Part shown: positions 6,366 to 26,421 of the stretch, one piece after another
How the letters are laid out: each line of letters starts with the position of its first letter
How positions within the stretch are numbered: position 1 is the first letter of the stretch
Assembly (NCBI RefSeq): GCF_000018785.1
Contig: NC_010163.1
Coordinates: 330,001-362,000 of the forward strand
Length of the DNA stretch: 32,000 nucleotides
DNA from: Acholeplasma laidlawii PG-8A
Lineage (GTDB): Bacteria > Bacillota_I > Bacilli_A > Acholeplasmatales > Acholeplasmataceae
Direction: 5' to 3'
Notes under the pieces: model-generated
Seen by the model: only the letters and a program-made list of their open reading frames with translations
Databases searched by the model: none
Told to the model about the DNA's origin: nothing
Translations under genes and position numbers: made by a program

Positions 6366-6936
6366 ACCGAAACTCTTATATAACCGAGATGAGATGTTAA
6401 AAATTAACATCGACACCTTGAAAAATAGATGTAATGTATCTGTTCTGGATATTGCAAAGATTGCACAGCAACAACAATCTAAATATTATCCTGGTATTGA
6501 TATTAACTTATGTGTGGAATCTGTAGAAAAAATATTAACATTTAGAGATGTTTTCCACCACATTCAATTTGCTGCAGAAGTTGATAGACTTGCTGAAGAA
6601 AAAATGTTTAAAGGACCAATACAAGATATTTTATTCTATGATCTTGGACTATTTGGTATTGATGAAACCATAGGTTTAGATGTTGCTAGAAACTATGGTG
6701 CGATTGGACAAACAAACTTTGGTGACATTGATGTCAATAAACATGGTATCGTTAAAAGATTAAATGATGCTGGTAAAACAGAAGGTATTGTACATACAAT
6801 GATGGATGATATTGTAGGTGCTATTGCTGCGGCTGCATCTACTCGTGTTGCTCAAGTGATGAACGAAGATATTGCACTTGAAAATCCAAGTTACCAAAAA
6901 ATTAGCTTATTTGATTTGAAAAAAAGGAAAAGATAA
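6358..6936 (+). CDS. phosphatidylglycerophosphatase A family protein (YutG/LtrC-like)
   Basis: The 192-aa ORF resembles B. subtilis YutG-type PgpA proteins (GIDETIGLDVARNYGAIGQTNFG.IDV.K.GI.K.LND......VHTMMDDIVGAIAAAASTRVAQ). It overlaps the fmt stop by 8 nt. Confidence 0.6.
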   Translation: MSKPKLLYNRDEMLKINIDTLKNRCNVSVLDIAKIAQQQQSKYYPGIDINLCVESVEKILTFRDVFHHIQFAAEVDRLAEEKMFKGPIQDILFYDLGLFGIDETIGLDVARNYGAIGQTNFGDIDVNKHGIVKRLNDAGKTEGIVHTMMDDIVGAIAAAASTRVAQVMNEDIALENPSYQKISLFDLKKRKR

Positions 6937-8317: not shown

Positions 8318-8336
8318 ATAAACAATTCAATAAAAA

Positions 8337-8466
8337 CTTATTCAGAGCAGGTGAGGTGATCAGTCCTTTGACCCTGCAGCAACCTACTTAAATTAGGTGC
8401 TCAACTGACAGGGGGCTAACCCACCAATAAGGAGATTTCATCACTTCCTTCTTGGGAAGTGTTTTT
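8337..8466 (+). promoter_or_regulatory. SAM-I (S-box) riboswitch with intrinsic terminator
   Basis: The P1 arms are CTTATT (8337-8342) and AATAAG (8426-8431). The conserved S-box core is present (GAGGTGA kink-turn-like, AGCAACC...GGTGCTCAA). The terminator hairpin is CACTTCC (8442-8448) / GGAAGTG (8455-8461) followed by T5. It lies directly upstream of metK. Confidence 0.85.
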
Positions 8467-16566: not shown

Positions 16567-17343
16567 ATGATATGGGACTTGGGTTTTATTGAACTAAATA
16601 TTGGCTGGCTCATTACCTTTTTTTCAGGGGTTTTATTTGGCGTTATTTTACTATCTTTATGGTATCTTGTAGCAGTCATTGCCTCATTAAATAAAGGTTT
16701 AAGAGGTGCTAAAGTGCAGGAAGAAGACATTGATGAAAAAGAGATTCAATGGCTTATTGAAGATGCACATAAAACATTTAAAGATAAAAAATTAAGAACT
16801 GAAGCGGGTTATGGACCGCATTTGATGAATGTGGCTTTAGAATTAAGTGCAGATATTGCTACTAAGTTTTACCCTAAAAGTAAATATCCATATTTAGAAC
16901 TATCACTCGATGAATCCTTAGTACTACTAAAGTATGTAGCGGATCGTTTTAATGAGTTATTAGAAAAACCCATCTTAAAGATGTTTAAAGGTATTACCTT
17001 AAGAAGATTATTTACATTAAGTGAAGCTAAAACTAAAATTGATAATAATCTCCTAGTTAAAGCGACTAATAAGTTAAAGGTGAATGAAATTATTAAACAG
17101 TCTATGATGGTACTAAATGTTGTAAACCCAGTGTACTGGTTTAGAAGATTAGTGTTAAATAATGTAACTCATGCCATTATGATTAAATTAGGTTTAGTAG
17201 TAATTTCACTAACTGGTGAGGAAACGTATAAAATATACTCTAAGAAAGTATTTAATCAAGATAAGACAATAGACTCGGGCATCGAAGAATTATATAAAGG
17301 CATTGAAGCAGATTTAAAGGGGGAAGAGAATCTTGAAGCGTAA
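16567..17343 (+). CDS. hypothetical membrane protein, translationally coupled to ftsK
   Basis: The 258-aa ORF has an N-terminal ~30-aa hydrophobic stretch (IGWLITFFSGVLFGVILLSLWYLVAVIASL). I recognise no family. Its end overlaps the ftsK TTG start by 11 nt. Confidence 0.5.
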   Translation: MIWDLGFIELNIGWLITFFSGVLFGVILLSLWYLVAVIASLNKGLRGAKVQEEDIDEKEIQWLIEDAHKTFKDKKLRTEAGYGPHLMNVALELSADIATKFYPKSKYPYLELSLDESLVLLKYVADRFNELLEKPILKMFKGITLRRLFTLSEAKTKIDNNLLVKATNKLKVNEIIKQSMMVLNVVNPVYWFRRLVLNNVTHAIMIKLGLVVISLTGEETYKIYSKKVFNQDKTIDSGIEELYKGIEADLKGEENLEA

Positions 17344-19414: not shown

Positions 19415-20274
19415 TGAAACAGGTTCAATGGTTTCCAGGACATATGTTCAAGTCCTTGAGAGAAATCAAGGAAAAAATTAAACTCATGGATATGGTATTT
19501 TTGCTCGTTGATGCAAGATTACCGTTTAGTAGTATGAATCCAGAGATTCTTAAAATTGTTGGTGACAAACCAACACTTTTATTGTTCAACAAAATCGATT
19601 TAGCTGATAGAAAAACTGTCGATAAATGGGTAGAATTTTATGAAGCGCAAGGTTTTTATACCCTCCTTATTAATAGTAATGATGGCTTCAATGTAAATAA
19701 AATTTATAGTAGAAGTAAAGAAATCTTAGAAGAAAAGATATTAAGATCTAAAAATAAAGGTATGAAGTTTGACCGTGTACGTGGAATGATTTTAGGTATA
19801 CCAAATGTTGGTAAATCTACCTTGATCAATAAGTTAGTATCTAAAAAGGCAACAAACGTTGGAAATAAACCAGGGGTGACTAAATCCCAACAATGGATTA
19901 AAATCAACCCACACTTCGAACTCCTTGATACACCAGGTGTATTATGGCCAAAATTTGAAGATGAAACTGTAGGGTTTGCGCTTGCCATTACTGGTGCGAT
20001 TAAAGATGATACGCTGCCAATGAATCAAGTAGTCATTTATGCAATTAACTACTTAAAAGAATATTATCCAATACGTTTAAAAGAACGCTATGGTATTGAA
20101 AATGTTCAGGATTTAGATGAAGTTGAAATACTTGATCATATTGGTAAAGTAAGAGGTGCTATTGTTAAAGGTGGCGAAACTGATTATGACAGAGTATATA
20201 CGATATTATTAACAGATATAAGAAATAGAAATTTAGGAGCACTAAGCTTTGACCATAGACAATCTAGCATTTGA
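19414..20274 (+). CDS. rbgA: ribosome biogenesis GTPase A (YlqF/RbgA)
   Basis: The 286-aa ORF begins VQWFPGHM and has circularly permuted GTPase motifs (NKIDL ... GIPNVGKST ... DTPG). Confidence 0.92.
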   Translation: MKQVQWFPGHMFKSLREIKEKIKLMDMVFLLVDARLPFSSMNPEILKIVGDKPTLLLFNKIDLADRKTVDKWVEFYEAQGFYTLLINSNDGFNVNKIYSRSKEILEEKILRSKNKGMKFDRVRGMILGIPNVGKSTLINKLVSKKATNVGNKPGVTKSQQWIKINPHFELLDTPGVLWPKFEDETVGFALAITGAIKDDTLPMNQVVIYAINYLKEYYPIRLKERYGIENVQDLDEVEILDHIGKVRGAIVKGGETDYDRVYTILLTDIRNRNLGALSFDHRQSSI

Positions 20275-20857
20275 AAAAGCACTTTATGATAAAGGGTATA
20301 CCTATATTTGTGGTGTAGATGAAGCTGGACGTGGTCCACTAGCTGGTCCAGTTGTTGCTGCAGCTGTAATTTTCGAAAAAGGTTTTTATCATGAAGACAT
20401 TAATGATTCTAAAACTTTATCAGCTAAAAAACGTGAAACCTTATTTGAACTCATTAAACAACATGCACTTGCAATTGGTGTAAGTGTTGTAAATCATGAA
20501 GTGATTGATAAAATAAATATATTAGAAGCAGCAAGACATGCAATGGAAGATGCTATTTCAAAACTAAAGATTAAACCACAATACGCATTAACTGATCATA
20601 TGGATATAAAAGGTATACCTTATACCTCCATTAAACATGGCGACCAACTATCTATATCGATTGCTGCAGCAAGTATAATTGCTAAAGTGACTAGAGATAA
20701 ATTGATGGTGGATTATGATGAGGTTTATCCTCAATACGGATTTAAAGACCATAAAGGTTATGGTACAAGAAAACATTTAGAGGCTCTAAATTTGTATGGT
20801 GTATCACCAATTCACCGTAAAACTTTTGCGCCCGTGGCTAAGTTATTAAAACAATAA
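20249..20857 (+). CDS. rnhB: ribonuclease HII
   Basis: The 202-aa ORF carries GVDEAGRGPLAGPVVAAAV, DSK.L and SIAAASIIAKV.RD. The TTG start lies 9 nt after GGAG and overlaps the rbgA end. rbgA-rnhB is a conserved Firmicute pair. Confidence 0.92.
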   Translation: MTIDNLAFEKALYDKGYTYICGVDEAGRGPLAGPVVAAAVIFEKGFYHEDINDSKTLSAKKRETLFELIKQHALAIGVSVVNHEVIDKINILEAARHAMEDAISKLKIKPQYALTDHMDIKGIPYTSIKHGDQLSISIAAASIIAKVTRDKLMVDYDEVYPQYGFKDHKGYGTRKHLEALNLYGVSPIHRKTFAPVAKLLKQ

Positions 20858-20961
20858 TCATGTGAAATCATGGTTTTGTTTTTCTATATGGACTAAAAAA
20901 TGTAAAAAAAACCTTCTATATAATATATTTATATAGAATAAAATATAAGAAAATTGAATAC

Positions 20962-20989
20962 TTGACATCAAGAATTTTAATTATATAAT
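20962..20989 (+). promoter_or_regulatory. near-consensus sigma-A promoter of topA
   Basis: TTGACA (20962-20967), 16-bp spacer, TATAAT (20984-20989). Confidence 0.6.
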
Positions 20990-21024
20990 TGATAAGGTAT
21001 AAAACTAAAGAATTGAGGCAATCT

Positions 21025-22812
21025 ATGTCAGACAAAGTAATTATTGTAGAATCACCTGCAAAATCAAAAACTATCTCAAGTTATTTCAACGATGAAGTAA
21101 CTGTTTTATCATCGGTAGGTCATATTAGAGACCTAGCAACCTCTGGTAAGGGTGGTTTAGGTGTAGATGTAGATAACAATTTTGAACCTACCTATAAAAT
21201 CATTACTGGTAAAGGTAAACTGATTACTGATTTAAAGAAAAAAACAAAAGGTAAAGAAGTTTTAATTGCAACCGACCCGGACCGCGAAGGAGAAGCTATC
21301 GCTTGGCATATCGCTGATGAGTTAGGTCTAGATTTAAACGAACATAACCGTATTGTTTTTAAAGAAATCACAAAACCTGCAGTTATGGAAGCAATCAACC
21401 ATAAACGTCAAATCGATTTAGGATTAGTCAACTCTCAAGAAAGTAGACGTATTTTAGACAGAATCATTGGTTTTAAACTATCTGCATTTTTAAGAGACAA
21501 AATTAAATCCAGATCAGCTGGTCGTGTTCAAAGTGTGGCTTTAAAACTAATTGTGGACTTAGAACGTGAAATTGAAAAATTTGTGCCTGAAACATATTTC
21601 ACCATGCATGCACATTTTAATGACCATGTAGCAGATTATGTTATTCCAAAAGATACACGTATTGGATTAGAAGAAGCTACTAAAATTGTTGAAACATCAA
21701 CAAATCCATTTTTAGTAAGTGATATTACTCAAAAAGAAACAAAAAGAAACGCTAAACCACCTTACATGACATCTACCTTACTTCAAGATGGCGTAAACAG
21801 TCTATATATGAGCTCTAGCCGTGTGATGTCAGTTGCATCTGAACTTTATCAAGGTATTGAAATCAATGGTCAAATTATCGGTTTAATCACGTATATGAAA
21901 ACAGACTCTAATCGTTTATCTAAAGAGTTTGTAAATCCTGCAAAAGCATTCATTGAAACAAACTATGGAAAAGAATATGTTGGTTTTTATAAGACAAATA
22001 ATAAAGACTCTAGTCAGGATGCCCACGAAGCAATCAGACCTACAGATATTCATTTAACACCAGAAAAAATAGAGCAATACTTATCAAAAGACCAATTTAA
22101 ACTTTATAAGAGAATTTATGAACGTGCAGTAGGATCACTTATGGCACCTGCAGTATTTAACAATACTAAAATTACGCTAGATTCAAATGGCAATATTTAT
22201 ACAATGGATGGAAGTATTCAAGTATTTGATGGTCACTTAAAAGTAACAGGTGATAAATCAAAAGATAAATTCTTACCTGAATATAAAATTGGTGATAAAC
22301 TAAATGCTGATTTAGTTGAAAAGATTGAAAAACAAACCCAACCACCTGCTCGTTTTAATGAAGCATCACTCATTAAAGCATTAGAAGCAAACGGTATTGG
22401 TAGACCATCTACATATGCAAGTATCATTAAAACGATTAAAGCACGCGACTATGTTATTGTAGATGAAAAACGATTTATTCCAACAGAACAAGGAAAGCTG
22501 ACAGTAGATACCTTGAATCAATACTTTAATAAAATCATGAAAATTGATTATACATCTAATATGGAATCAGAACTTGACTTAATTGCAGATGGTAAAGTTG
22601 ATCATATTCAATTATTGAAAGATTTTTACAATAAATTTATGCCGATTTTAGAAGCTGCTCAACAAAATATGGAAAAAATAAAACCGGTTGTAACTGATAA
22701 AATATGTCCACTGTGCGGTGGAAACCTAGTTATTAGAAAATCTAGATATGGTGAGTTCTATGGTTGCAGCAATTTTCCGAAGTGTAAACACATTGAACAG
22801 ATGTCGGAATAA
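21025..22812 (+). CDS. topA: DNA topoisomerase I
   Basis: It has a TOPRIM N-terminus (VIIVESPAKSKTI..Y), DPDREGEAIAWH, the active-site region GLITYMKTDS, and one C-terminal zinc ribbon (CPLCGG...CSNFPKCKH). I chose the ATG at 21025 (GAGG RBS at 21015-21018) over the track's TTG at 20989, which overlaps the -10 box. Confidence 0.93.
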   Translation: MSDKVIIVESPAKSKTISSYFNDEVTVLSSVGHIRDLATSGKGGLGVDVDNNFEPTYKIITGKGKLITDLKKKTKGKEVLIATDPDREGEAIAWHIADELGLDLNEHNRIVFKEITKPAVMEAINHKRQIDLGLVNSQESRRILDRIIGFKLSAFLRDKIKSRSAGRVQSVALKLIVDLEREIEKFVPETYFTMHAHFNDHVADYVIPKDTRIGLEEATKIVETSTNPFLVSDITQKETKRNAKPPYMTSTLLQDGVNSLYMSSSRVMSVASELYQGIEINGQIIGLITYMKTDSNRLSKEFVNPAKAFIETNYGKEYVGFYKTNNKDSSQDAHEAIRPTDIHLTPEKIEQYLSKDQFKLYKRIYERAVGSLMAPAVFNNTKITLDSNGNIYTMDGSIQVFDGHLKVTGDKSKDKFLPEYKIGDKLNADLVEKIEKQTQPPARFNEASLIKALEANGIGRPSTYASIIKTIKARDYVIVDEKRFIPTEQGKLTVDTLNQYFNKIMKIDYTSNMESELDLIADGKVDHIQLLKDFYNKFMPILEAAQQNMEKIKPVVTDKICPLCGGNLVIRKSRYGEFYGCSNFPKCKHIEQMSE

Positions 22813-22845
22813 ATGTGTTATTAAATACATAAATACGCATTAAAC

Positions 22846-22874
22846 TTTACATAGAAAAAGAATAAGAATATAAT
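22846..22874 (+). promoter_or_regulatory. candidate promoter for the C-rich small RNA
   Basis: TTTACA (22846-22851), 17-bp spacer, TATAAT (22869-22874). The predicted start is near G22881. Confidence 0.45.
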
Positions 22875-22880
22875 GAAAAT

Positions 22881-22981
22881 GCATCCAAACTATTGGGTGC
22901 TACTTATCCCCTATTAGTGTACTTAGTACACAAATCCCCTTTAATGATCCCCTGGCCTTTAGTCAGGGGATCGCTTTTTTT
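22881..22981 (+). ncRNA. candidate ~100-nt small RNA with three ATCCCCT motifs (RsaE/RoxS-like architecture)
   Basis: A promoter lies upstream. Hairpin 1 is 22881-22886/22895-22900 and hairpin 2 is 22917-22922/22926-22931. ATCCCCT occurs at 22906-22912 and 22934-22940 (both predicted unpaired) and at 22947-22953 (in the terminator stem). A strong terminator with T7 follows. There is no ORF. Confidence 0.45.
22946..22981 (+). terminator. rho-independent terminator (ends topA transcription and the candidate sRNA)
   Basis: A GC-rich 9-bp stem GATCCCCTG (22946-22954) / CAGGGGATC (22964-22972) is followed by GC and T7 (22975-22981). Confidence 0.88.
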
Positions 22982-23052
22982 ATTATTAGTACCATTTAAT
23001 AATTCAAGTTCACTATGTTATAATAATACATATTACTAAAAAGGGATAAGTT

Positions 23053-25539
23053 ATGAAAAAATTAATATTACTGTTTTTATTGATGCCTATTTTAACTTCG
23101 TGTGAAATAGGCAAACCATTGATAGAGTTTGAATCTAATGGAGCGAATCACATCTCACCTATAGAATTTTTAGGTATAGAAAACCTACCTAGTCCAGAAA
23201 AGGAAGGACATACCTTTGAAGGCTGGTATTTGGATAACGGTTTAACGAATAAACTTATAGATGATGAACAAATCATTTCGAACACAAAGGTATACGCAAA
23301 ATGGATTGTTAACCAATACAACATCGAATTTGAAGTAGATGGTGGTATTGAAATCGATCCACTTACAAATGATTTTGGTGCAGATATTACAAATTTACCT
23401 TCACCTGAAAAAGAAGGGTATAGTTTTGATGGTTGGTATTTAGAAAGTAACTTAGCTACTTTATTTGAAAGTGATACAATGCCTTCTAAAAACATCGTAC
23501 TTTACGCAAAATGGAATATAAATAACTATGATATCAATTATTATTATGAAGGTGAACTATTAAGTAGTTTTACAGTGCCTTTTAATCAGATAGTTTTAGG
23601 AGAACATGCGTATGAAGCACCTAAAATTGAAGGTTATACATTTTTATCATGGAGTGTAGAACTACCAACACTTATGCCCGCTCATGACATTAGTATTGAT
23701 GCGATTTATGAAATTAACACCTATCAAGTCACTTACATAGACTATAATGGTGACATCTTATTAGAACTTGAAGTTGATTACAATTCAACAGCAGCATTAC
23801 CTGATGTACCAAATAATCAAGAAGGTTATCATTTTGTCAAATGGGATAAGACCAATGAAAAGATTTCATCAAATGTAACAATTAAAGCCGTTTATGAGAT
23901 AAATATATATGAAGTAACTATTTTAGACTACGATCAAACCTATCTTGGATCAGAGTCTATTGAACATGGTTCTATTTTCACAACAAGTATATTACCTCAA
24001 AACTATCCAGGGAAACTCTTTTTTGGATGGGATATAGGAACCGATATTATCACATCTGATCTTACAGTTGTTGCTGAATATAGTGATATCATTCATATTT
24101 CTTTTGAAGTAGATGGTGGATTAGAATTAGAAAATATACAAATACCAAAAGGTAAACCACTGAGTGTTGAACCAGTTACTTCCAAAATAGATTATTATTT
24201 TGTTAGTTGGTATCTAGATTCTGAATTTATTGAAATTTATTATCATGATCATATATTTACTTCAGATGCTACACTTTATGCAAAATATAGTGAAACAGCA
24301 CCAGAAGAAATAGTTATCATGCATGATAAATTAAATGAAGTAGATCCATTTCATCCATTTTATACAGCACCTGATAAAATGGAGCGACAAAAGGTTATTA
24401 AAGAAGTTGAAATAAGATTAAATGTTAAGGTTATATTTAAAGCATATCACGAACAAGCAGCTTATGGTAGAGACCGTATAAATAGTATTAAAAATAGTGC
24501 TATTGCAGGGGTTTTGATGGCTGATATATTATCAATTAACTCTGACTGGACAGTAGAACTTGTTAAAGCAGGTGCAATCGATCCTGTAGACAGATATATA
24601 ATGTTTTCTGGTGATTCAAAAATTTCTGAAAATTCCAAAATTTTAGGTATGTATAATGGCAGAATCTATACATTTACTGAAAACGAACCTACTGTAGACA
24701 AAGGTTTATTCTTCAATTTAGATTTATTGAGATCATTAGGTCTTGAAAACCCGGCTGAACTATTTAATCAAAACGGGTGGACTTGGTCGAACTTTGAAGC
24801 ATGGGCAACATCTGCTAAAACAGCTTTAGAAAGTTTAGGCAAAGAGTATAAGGTACTAGGTGGTAATCGTGCTTTATATGCTGAAAGCATAATTCCTTTA
24901 AATGGCAGTTCCTTAATTAACTATCGAAACGAAAGGGTTGAATTCCACTATGCAATTGCTGGAGAAACATATAGTTTCCTTCATGAATTGCATAAAAAAG
25001 GATTATTTGAAAACTCAGGAAGATATGATGCAGGTTCTCCTTTATGGTTATCTGGTAAAGTACTGATACATCCTGGTGAGTTATCTTTCTTAGATGCTTC
25101 AAATAGATGGAAGCATATTTCATTTGATTTAGGTTATGTGCCTTATCCAAGTAGTGATAATTATTTTGGAACATATCAATCAGCGATAAGTAATAAAGAT
25201 GTGTATGCTGTATCTACTAGTCAAAATGCTTATAAACAGGAACTCGCATTCAAAGTCTGGAATGAAATTCAAACTTGGAAAACAAAAGAAGATCAAATAA
25301 ATGACCTAAGCACTTTCTTACAAAATAGAATGAATGATGAAGCTTCAGTCTCAGCATATCTATCTATATATAATCAAATAACTATAGATCCAATAAACAG
25401 TCTAGGTATATTAAAAACCTCTAATTATAGTTGGTATACCGCTGCAAACCTGGCCATCATAAATGGCAATTGGAGGGATCAAATGGATATTATAAGACCA
25501 AGTTATGAAGATGCAGTTGAAACTTATTACGGATACTAA
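23053..25539 (+). CDS. surface lipoprotein: six Listeria/Bacteroides-type (Flg_new-like) repeats fused to a family-1-like solute-binding domain
   Basis: 828-aa ORF. The signal peptide has a lipobox (MKKLILLFLLMPILTS-C17). Repeats with the G(Y/H)xFxGWY...(V/L)YAKW signature follow. The C-terminal ~415 aa resemble sugar-type ABC substrate-binding proteins (NGWTWSNFEAWA, KVLGG, LGYVPYP). Confidence 0.75.
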   Translation: MKKLILLFLLMPILTSCEIGKPLIEFESNGANHISPIEFLGIENLPSPEKEGHTFEGWYLDNGLTNKLIDDEQIISNTKVYAKWIVNQYNIEFEVDGGIEIDPLTNDFGADITNLPSPEKEGYSFDGWYLESNLATLFESDTMPSKNIVLYAKWNINNYDINYYYEGELLSSFTVPFNQIVLGEHAYEAPKIEGYTFLSWSVELPTLMPAHDISIDAIYEINTYQVTYIDYNGDILLELEVDYNSTAALPDVPNNQEGYHFVKWDKTNEKISSNVTIKAVYEINIYEVTILDYDQTYLGSESIEHGSIFTTSILPQNYPGKLFFGWDIGTDIITSDLTVVAEYSDIIHISFEVDGGLELENIQIPKGKPLSVEPVTSKIDYYFVSWYLDSEFIEIYYHDHIFTSDATLYAKYSETAPEEIVIMHDKLNEVDPFHPFYTAPDKMERQKVIKEVEIRLNVKVIFKAYHEQAAYGRDRINSIKNSAIAGVLMADILSINSDWTVELVKAGAIDPVDRYIMFSGDSKISENSKILGMYNGRIYTFTENEPTVDKGLFFNLDLLRSLGLENPAELFNQNGWTWSNFEAWATSAKTALESLGKEYKVLGGNRALYAESIIPLNGSSLINYRNERVEFHYAIAGETYSFLHELHKKGLFENSGRYDAGSPLWLSGKVLIHPGELSFLDASNRWKHISFDLGYVPYPSSDNYFGTYQSAISNKDVYAVSTSQNAYKQELAFKVWNEIQTWKTKEDQINDLSTFLQNRMNDEASVSAYLSIYNQITIDPINSLGILKTSNYSWYTAANLAIINGNWRDQMDIIRPSYEDAVETYYGY
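23104..24288 (+). repeat. six tandem ~62-70-aa protein repeats (diverged at DNA level) within the lipoprotein gene
   Basis: Repeat units span aa 18-84, 85-154, 155-219, 220-281, 282-343 and 344-412. Each ends in an aromatic (Y/W) after a hydrophobic strand and contains the EG(H/Y)xFxxW core. Units 1 and 2 share NLPSPEKEG(H/Y).F.GWYL. Confidence 0.7.
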
Positions 25540-25568
25540 ACACTATATTCATTTAAATTGATTATTTT

Positions 25569-25598
25569 AAAAAGTCTATCGCTGTCGATAGACTTTTA
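25569..25598 (+). terminator. rho-independent terminator after the lipoprotein gene
   Basis: Stem AAAAGTCTATCG (25570-25581) / CGATAGACTTTT (25586-25597) with a 4-nt loop CTGT. The T-run forms part of the right arm. Confidence 0.75.
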
Positions 25599-25716
25599 TC
25601 TTGTTAAGTTATGATTCATGTGTAAAACATACATACACTTACCTGAATTTTTATGTGTTCTATGCTAAAATAAACATAGTATACTTTTCATGAAAATAGT
25701 ATAAGGAGGATGAAGT

Positions 25717-26421
25717 ATGTTAGAAGCAATCTATCTAACTAAGGCATATGATAACTTACTCGTTTTAGATGGTGCATCATTTAAAGTTGAAAAAAATCAA
25801 ATTGTTGGTTTACTAGGGCCAAATGGTAGTGGTAAAACAACAATTATTAAACTCATCAATGATCTCATTAAACCCACGAGTGGTCATATCATATTTAAGG
25901 GACACAAATTAAATATAGAAGATAAATCAAATATTGCGTATTTACCAGAGCGTAGTGCGCTTAATATGAGTCAAACTGTTTTAGATGTTATAAAGATGTA
26001 TAAAGACTTCTTTAGTGATTTTAATCAAGAACATGCCAAGCACATATTAAAATTGTTTGAAGTACCTGTAACTAAAAGATTATCTCAATTATCAAAAGGT
26101 CAACGAGGTAAGGTACAACTTGCACTTACACTCGGTAGAAAAGTAGATTTATATATACTAGATGAACCGCTAGACGGTATGGATCCAGCATCCAGAGACT
26201 TAATCATGAAGATTGTCTTAAAATATAAAAAGGAAGATTCCACGGTTTTAATCTCTACACACCAAATTACTGATATAGAATCTTATTTAGATTACGTTAT
26301 TTTATTGAAAAACGGAAAAATAATTGAGGCAGATCTTGCAAAAAATTTAGAATCTAGACACAATCTGACTTTATCTGCTTATTTTAAGGAGGTCTATAAA
26401 TATGATGAAGAAATTATATAA
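25717..26421 (+). CDS. ABC transporter ATP-binding protein
   Basis: The 234-aa ORF has Walker A GPNGSGKTT, signature LSKGQRGK and Walker B LYILDEP. A GGAGG RBS is present. Confidence 0.9.
   Translation: MLEAIYLTKAYDNLLVLDGASFKVEKNQIVGLLGPNGSGKTTIIKLINDLIKPTSGHIIFKGHKLNIEDKSNIAYLPERSALNMSQTVLDVIKMYKDFFSDFNQEHAKHILKLFEVPVTKRLSQLSKGQRGKVQLALTLGRKVDLYILDEPLDGMDPASRDLIMKIVLKYKKEDSTVLISTHQITDIESYLDYVILLKNGKIIEADLAKNLESRHNLTLSAYFKEVYKYDEEII

Follow-up and report, generated by a model that had tools for sequence, protein, structure and literature searches.

What does the spacer downstream of topA in Acholeplasma laidlawii PG-8A encode? In the 32,000-nt stretch that we analysed (NC_010163.1, positions 330,001 to 362,000 of the forward strand; hereafter the window, numbered from its first letter), 240 nt separate the topA stop codon (22812) from the ATG of the next gene, ACL_0340 (23053). 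A prediction made from the sequence alone had placed in this spacer a self-contained, C-rich small RNA (sRNA) of about 100 nt, similar to the RsaE/RoxS family of Firmicutes. The analysis indicates that the element at 22881-22981 on the plus strand is almost certainly a genuine structured small RNA that is expressed and strongly conserved. It is probably an independently transcribed, trans-acting base-pairing sRNA of ~100 nt, with seeds that pair with G-rich ribosome-binding sites (RBSs).

The element forms a compact unit of an upstream promoter, three hairpins and a T-tract. The sigma-70-type promoter, TTTACA-17-TATAAT, scored 11/12 and ranked second within positions 20000-26000. The terminator stem comprised 12 pairs, 7 of them G-C, followed by CTTTTTTT. 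The near-consensus promoter and GC-rich terminator of the original prediction were both recovered, as was its observation that no terminator-like site lies between the topA stop and the element.

Published data locate the start of the transcript. Primary 5' ends have been mapped in A. laidlawii PG-8A from libraries in which Terminator exonuclease treatment had enriched 5'-triphosphate ends (Fisunov 2016, PMC5138195). The window's TopA matches A. laidlawii TopA at 100% identity and the strain 8195 protein at 97%. On the plus strand, Table_1.XLS of that study lists transcription start sites (TSSs) at 350996 (for topA, ACL_0339), 352882 and 353031, the latter two tagged ACL_0340. Subtracting 330001 from the genome positions put each of the 11 plus-strand TSSs within the window on a purine, 6 nt past a -10 box. 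Site 352882 coincides with G22881, where hairpin 1 begins, in agreement with the predicted start near 22881, and the primary transcript thus starts exactly at the onset of structure. Control counts at this site were 30.9 and 20.5 and heat counts 43.1 and 26.2 (PMC5138195), which ranks it within about the highest fifth of the ~265 start sites given in part 1 of the table. The lipoprotein gene ACL_0340 has a separate, weaker TSS at 353031 (window 23030) with its own promoter and counts of about 1-5. The authors read 352882 as a distal or second promoter of ACL_0340 (PMC5138195).

The published table fits the window better with an offset of 330001 than of 330000, a one-base numbering difference. 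A SAM riboswitch (Rfam RF00162, 45.3 bits) was found at window positions 8335-8433 on the plus strand, ~10 nt after TSS 338325 (window 8324), and its position gives independent support for the coordinate mapping.

An origin only through processing of the topA 3' untranslated region (UTR), a route raised in the original prediction, is not needed given the mapped primary 5' end; processing from a topA precursor is possible, but the RNA can exist without it. As topA lacks a terminator of its own, its transcripts should share that of the sRNA, which probably also ends topA transcripts; read-through from topA into the sRNA terminator is likely.

The C-rich motifs and the fold were then examined in the window. 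The heptamer ATCCCCT occurred on the plus strand exactly where it had been reported, at 22906, 22934 and 22947. Counting both strands of the window, there were 6 occurrences against 1.8 expected, and 0/100 shuffles reached 6; CCCC was depleted in the window overall (31 matches, 46 expected). Outside the element the plus strand carried CCCC at seven sites (1200, 5470, 15909, 16061, 17921/2, 19332 and 30922), not at the two previously counted by eye. The 105-nt RNA from 22881 folded into three hairpins with a minimum free energy (MFE) of -37.5 kcal/mol, compared with -18.7 ± 2.7 kcal/mol for shuffles (z = -7.0). Motifs 1 and 2 lay in linkers with an unpaired probability of 1.0 each and motif 3 lay in the terminator stem (0.0), the arrangement that had been drawn by hand. 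The MFE structure had a frequency of 0.16, centroid and MFE structures were near-identical, and no alternative antiterminator fold was seen.

Relatives were first retrieved through TopA. Strain 8195 and three Acholeplasma metagenome-assembled genomes (MAGs; 83-85% TopA identity; together loci L001-L004) carried the element at the same place in 4/4 cases. In the three MAGs, identity to the window was 98.4% for the RNA core (22881-22944), 75-80% for the last 600 nt of topA, 56-62% at topA third codon positions, 50-67% in the promoter spacer and ~55% in the 3' flank. Homolog promoters kept both hexamers and the 17-nt spacing despite their weakly conserved spacer sequence, and the promoter was kept in 18/19 of the upstream regions inspected. 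The -35 element was an invariant, non-consensus CTTTAC(A/T) in 18/19 promoters, as against the TTGACA typical for A. laidlawii.

A metagenome scan with a two-motif pattern returned 76 loci, a selection biased toward intact motifs. Thirteen of these scored 50-136 bits with a covariance model made from the first five sequences, and the rest were chance matches. topA lay directly upstream in 10 of the 13, with TopA identity down to 57%. Motif conservation was judged on topA loci from named species and MAGs, fetched without reference to the motif. The RNA was present right after topA, at 73-110 bits, in A. oculi, A. hippikon, A. equirhinis, Alteracholeplasma palmae and four MAGs with ~60% TopA identity. 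In all, 12 of the 13 Acholeplasmataceae loci retrieved by TopA alone (60-97% identity) had the RNA directly after topA, and the distinct homologs, including the four named species and several MAGs, numbered 21. In the eight pattern-independent homologs (L158-L165), UUAUCCCCUAUU and AAAUCCCCU were unchanged. The check on relatives proposed with the original prediction came out in favour of motifs 1 and 2, which were invariant in all 21 homologs. The invariant unpaired tracts are 12 nt and 9 nt long, and the 3' flank of motif 2 varies among homologs (UUUAA, UUAAU, UGAAG).

The only TopA-ascertained Acholeplasma locus without the sRNA was that of A. granularum (L157, 4788-4891), where the topA neighbourhood is rearranged. 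There, a convergent ROK-family gene begins ~100 nt past topA, and the sRNA may lie elsewhere in the genome. With two covariance models (R1 and R2), no homolog adjoining topA was found in other lineages (76 loci, TopA identity ≤53%). The same models found no second copy in the window, in ~20 kb around topA in L001-L004 or in ~8 kb around topA in L157-L165. A weak match (21 bits) occurred at 6794-6878 on the plus strand of L048 (Firmicutes bacterium UBA4996), with a UUCCCCUUU tract followed by a terminator. It sits ~3 kb upstream of topA and could be an unrelated C-rich sRNA or a mere terminator.

The structure was supported by covariation. RNAalifold on MAFFT alignments of 13 and 21 distinct sequences gave the same three hairpins. 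In the model-based alignment 95.4% of cells were paired, with compensatory changes at 17/27 pairs. None of 500 column shuffles reached any of five measures, and sliding the partners by 1-3 columns as a control lowered pairing to 33-45%. When 13 homologs were folded singly, the fold was the same in each and both CCCC runs stayed unpaired (probability 0.97-1.0). In hairpin 1, 96% of cells were paired and 3 of 8 pairs showed compensatory changes; in hairpin 2 the figure was 3 of 7 modelled pairs (UGUGCA/UGCACA in L125; GUGUAU/AUACAC in L109 and L162). Compensatory changes were most extensive in the terminator stem, at 11/12 pairs. Motif 3 was replaced in homologs by GACCCUC, GACCCGC, GACCUCC, GGUCUUC and others, and was absent from several. 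Because this stem changes freely with compensation and the motif is replaced, the third ATCCCCT is, as judged from the homolog sequences, a chance feature of a G+C-rich terminator stem and not a third seed; a role for it is not supported.

Positions of the RNA, its control elements and the candidate target sites in the window
Feature	Position	Strand	Description
Upstream block TGTG...ACATA..CGCATTAAA	22814..22845	+	From topA stop to -35; conserved in the A. laidlawii/A. oculi subclade
Sigma-70-type promoter	22846..22874	+	-35 TTTACA 22846-22851, 17-nt spacer, -10 TATAAT 22869-22874
TSS	22881 (G; genome 352882)	+	6 nt after -10, first base of hairpin 1
Hairpin 1	22881..22900	+	GCAUCCAA-ACUA-UUGGGUGC; begins at +1; 8 pairs
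Linker 1 with motif 1 (22906-22912)	22901..22916	+	Single-stranded; UUAUCCCCUAUU invariant in 21 homologs; proposed seed 1
Hairpin 2	22917..22931	+	GUGUAC-UUA-GUACAC; 7 modelled pairs
Linker 2 with motif 2 (22934-22940)	22932..22944	+	Single-stranded; AAAUCCCCU invariant; proposed seed 2
Intrinsic terminator	22945..22981	+	Stem 22945-22973, then T-tract; motif 3 (22947-22953) in 5' arm
ftsK RBS, candidate target	17314..17323	+	UUAAAGGGG(G) complementary to motif 2 (CCCCUUUAA)
ACL_0340 RBS, candidate target	23035..23051	+	GGGAUAAGU (23043-23051) predicted to pair with sRNA ACUUAUCCC; ATG 23053

The block between the topA stop and the -35 element may be a regulator-binding site or an UP-like element. 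Its presence is not family-wide: the TGTG block is missing from lineages with ~60% TopA identity, whose topA stop directly adjoins the -35. The possibility of a Rex-, CRP- or ResD-like palindrome before the -35 was considered and is left as an observation, since the half-site spacing is variable and the block is gone in distant homologs.

Candidate targets were sought in the 32-kb window, with ~27 translation-initiation regions, by RNAduplex on 12,708 windows of 45 nt. Two of the ~27 regions reached the top 0.2% of predicted duplex energies. At the ACL_0340 RBS, nine contiguous pairs plus 5 more at 23035-23039 gave -16.0 kcal/mol (top 0.2%). The ftsK RBS, AAAGGGGGAAG at 17316-17326, gave -13.7 kcal/mol (top 0.1%), the second-best motif-2 site in the window; it falls within an upstream open reading frame (ORF). 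Values for topA as a target were -5.3 and -4.2 kcal/mol. A search of the window for longer complementarity (15-16-nt reverse complements with ≤3 mismatches) gave nothing beyond chance. UCCCCU is fully complementary only to GGGG-type Shine-Dalgarno (SD) sequences, and GGAGG leaves an A·C mismatch, so the RNA would select a small subset of genes.

These results suggest the following mechanism. The RNA starts at G22881 from its own promoter and opens with hairpin 1, and it would end at the strong intrinsic terminator. Hairpin 1 may act as a 5' stabiliser that shields the transcript from 5'-end-dependent decay. The two unpaired invariant tracts, UUAUCCCCUAUU and AAAUCCCCU, would serve as seeds for GGGG-type SD regions (AAAGGGGAU or AUAGGGGAUAA), which are presumably rare in the genome. 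Pairing would stop ribosome loading, open the mRNA to RNases, or both, and a strong C:G seed could act independently of an Hfq-type chaperone. Transcripts of topA would end at the same terminator and bear the sRNA as their 3' end. An extension of this scheme, which we regard as a long shot, is that topA and the sRNA form a two-output module, with free sRNA made from the internal promoter and the seed also embedded in topA mRNA. If it were true, topA transcription and DNA supercoiling would set the ratio of free to embedded seed and so tune translation of GGGG-SD genes such as the DNA translocase gene ftsK; chromosome topology and segregation would be coupled through RNA, and the arrangement would be ancient in the Acholeplasmataceae.

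Several points weigh against a trans-acting base-pairing role. Heat shock, the sole condition in the TSS data, left expression unchanged. The experimental evidence on the transcript covers its 5' end, and the ~100-nt length and the 3' end are predicted. The targets are likewise predicted candidates from the 32-kb scan. The original prediction had offered the ftsK RBS as an example of a complementary RBS; as a candidate target it is plausible, and its predicted complementarity is partly conserved (3/4 relatives), with AAAGGGGG kept in L001, L003 and L004 and replaced by AAAGGAG in L002. The ACL_0340 site is strain-specific, the gene being absent from strain 8195 and other species, which makes ACL_0340 at most a strain-specific target. 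Among the neighbouring genes ylqF, rnhB, topA, tpx, ftsY, ylxM, ffh, ABC and U32, no consistent complementarity was found. Finally, the stems of hairpins 1 and 2 are near-invariant in sequence over the 21 homologs, far beyond what pairing needs.

This last point also fits an RNA that binds or sequesters a protein, with the linkers and the stems of hairpins 1 and 2 as a recognition surface for, e.g., a KH-, S1- or CSD-type protein or the ribosome. The free covariation of the terminator alongside near-invariant stems favours such a role, as does the lack of a conserved target among the neighbours, and the authors of the LhrC study raised the same option for their UCCC sRNA (PMC4132741). Against it, none of the results points to a partner protein, pairing of unpaired UCCC/CCCC motifs with SD regions has been demonstrated repeatedly in low-GC Gram-positive bacteria, and the motifs have near-perfect 9-10-nt complementarity to two RBSs in the window. 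We consider protein binding an unlikely explanation.

A cis-acting element is improbable. The element would then be a 3' UTR or terminator module for topA mRNA stability or termination, or a leader or attenuator of the downstream gene, ancestrally tpx. The close linkage to topA, with no terminator between, is what such a module would look like, and the TSS study had attributed the start site to the gene downstream. Ancestrally, the order seems to have been ftsK-(lepB)-ylqF-rnhB-topA-sRNA-tpx-ftsY-ylxM-ffh, with insertions after the RNA in the A. laidlawii clade, and the distance from terminator to tpx is just 50-60 nt. However, the RNA is served by a conserved promoter of its own, its primary TSS is mapped, and it also occurs without topA at two metagenomic loci: between a histidine kinase gene and tpx in L100, and between a class II aldolase gene and U32 peptidase genes in L109. 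Because it is found without topA, the RNA is a gene in its own right. The gene that follows it may be tpx, an ABC ATPase gene, one or more U32 peptidase genes, a lipoprotein gene, or nothing, and each downstream gene has its own -10 box just past the T-tract. The leader reading was rejected because the downstream genes vary and have their own promoters. The lack of an antiterminator fold also argues against a cis role, and a mere terminator would not hold 12-nt and 9-nt unpaired tracts invariant.

In the window the downstream gene, ACL_0340 (23053-25539), encodes a strain-specific 828-aa lipoprotein with Listeria-Bacteroides repeats. In strain 8195 (L001, 11958-12060) the lipoprotein gene is missing, and the sRNA terminator almost abuts a match to the terminator that lies past this gene in the window (25570-25597). 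The thiol peroxidase gene tpx follows the sRNA in L161-L165, L100, L125 and L091, with its own, often extended, -10 box; its RBS is of the GGAGG type and has no conserved complementarity to the motifs.

Also considered was a diverged RsaE/RoxS orthologue, a reading that would extend that family to the Acholeplasma lineage. The two share the core AUCCCCUUU a few nt before the terminator and a second CCCC motif, RoxS has CCCCUUUGUU twice (PMC4409812), and the host belongs to the Bacilli. The ancestral neighbour tpx recalls the redox-stress link of RoxS, which is a lead only. However, the Rfam RsaE model (RF01820) gave no match at E≤10, either in a 281-nt search of 22780-23060 or in four divergent homolog loci. 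Three hairpins with motifs in linkers also differ from RsaE, in which CRR1 lies in a hairpin loop; this RNA lacks the GUUU extension of the RsaE repeat, and a short C-rich seed can easily arise by convergence. Orthology is thus very unlikely, and the RsaE/RoxS-like label of the original prediction holds for the C-rich anti-SD design and not for family membership. A small protein from an ORF that starts in hairpin 1 (TTG 22893, 48 aa, 22893-23039) has next to no chance and was rejected: its start codon is at the same place in many homologs, but it has no SD, its start lies within a stem, the frame reads through the terminator into unrelated flanks, a loop substitution in L004 cuts it to 10 aa (lengths range from 10 to 48 aa), distant homologs shift frame (GATYPLL vs LLIPY), and the lengths of loop indels do not keep to multiples of three.

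Mollicutes and their Acholeplasma relatives have few transcription factors, and to our knowledge no Hfq- or ProQ-type RNA chaperone is known in them. With a mapped 5' end, family-wide conservation, strong covariation and two invariant seeds, this RNA offers a well-defined entry point to post-transcriptional control. It would be the first C-rich anti-SD sRNA from the Acholeplasmataceae or Mollicutes, and it would indicate that the design of a C-rich seed against a G-rich SD reaches past the Bacillales, through descent or convergence. A literature search turned up no description of this RNA, nor of any trans-acting sRNA in Acholeplasma. In the available part of a systematic Breaker-lab screen of PG-8A intergenic regions, the sole motif reported for the genome is uORFC-13-1, which is unrelated. 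The annotation is also corrected, as TSS 352882 had been given to ACL_0340 as a second promoter, and a family absent from Rfam 15 is added. Genetic tools exist for A. laidlawii (PMC10805103), and deletion, seed mutation and target capture should therefore be feasible.

To place the RNA among known systems, the whole window was searched by cmscan with all 4227 Rfam 15 families at gathering thresholds, and no match was found at the element. The best permissive match was LhrC (RF00616), with 28.7 bits and E = 0.014 in the 281-nt search. Membership in LhrC was rejected: the score is far under the gathering score of 110, and no match at E≤10 was obtained in the homologs L091, L142, L125 and L127. 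LhrC binds the G-rich RBSs of its targets through redundant UCCC motifs (PMC4132741), and both RNAs combine a hairpin, a single-stranded C-rich stretch and a terminator. LhrC has 5-7 copies, whereas one was found here per sequence stretch examined (the window and the topA-flanking loci). In LhrC, UCCC is also found in loop A, in the linker and in the loop of the terminator, whereas the third C-run here is in the terminator stem and is not conserved.

In RsaE/RoxS, C-rich regions pair with G-rich SD sequences (PMC4409812). The present RNA resembles it as a Firmicute sRNA of ~100 nt that has a promoter of its own, an intrinsic terminator and several C-rich regions, among them an unpaired CCCCUUU just before the terminator. 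It differs in having three hairpins rather than two, with both seeds in linkers and none in a loop, and in its genomic context after topA. RsaE/RoxS contains a duplicated 10-nt CCCCUUUGUU with CRR1 and CRR3, of which CRR1 is in a hairpin loop (PMC4409812); this duplication is absent here, and motifs UAUCCCCUAUUA and AAAUCCCCUUUAAU share only CCCCU(UU) with the repeat. The RsaE/RoxS promoter is under the control of ResD/SrrA, through a conserved box near -65, and of Rex. Upstream of the present RNA a TGTG-containing block lies at ~-67 in the A. laidlawii subclade and is absent in distant homologs.

Unpaired UCCC/CCCC motifs pair with SD sequences in RsaE/RoxS, LhrC, FsrA and RNAIII (PMC4409812, PMC4132741). 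The wider UCCC-motif class (S. aureus Rsa RNAs, RNAIII, SprD, B. subtilis FsrA and CsfG) resembles the present RNA in its unpaired C-rich seeds, G-poor RNA and SD targeting; its member families are unrelated in sequence and typically act independently of Hfq. The seeds here differ in being longer invariant tracts, of 12 and 9 nt. A different parallel is offered by MicL and DapZ of enterobacteria, sRNAs from mRNA 3' ends that have their own promoter and share the terminator of the mRNA. The present RNA likewise directly follows a coding gene without its own terminator, but its promoter lies past the stop codon and not inside the coding sequence.

Three features were compared with the class of C-rich anti-SD sRNAs. 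Here, the independent unit is evident in its own promoter, a primary 5' end and a terminator. Two C-rich motifs are invariant in all 21 homologs, eight of them ascertained without the motif, and are unpaired in the 13 homologs folded singly. Pairing with G-rich RBSs is represented by predicted duplexes that are partly conserved. In functional class the RNA is best placed among the C-rich anti-SD sRNAs of Firmicutes, as a new family in the Acholeplasmataceae that is a member of neither RsaE nor LhrC.

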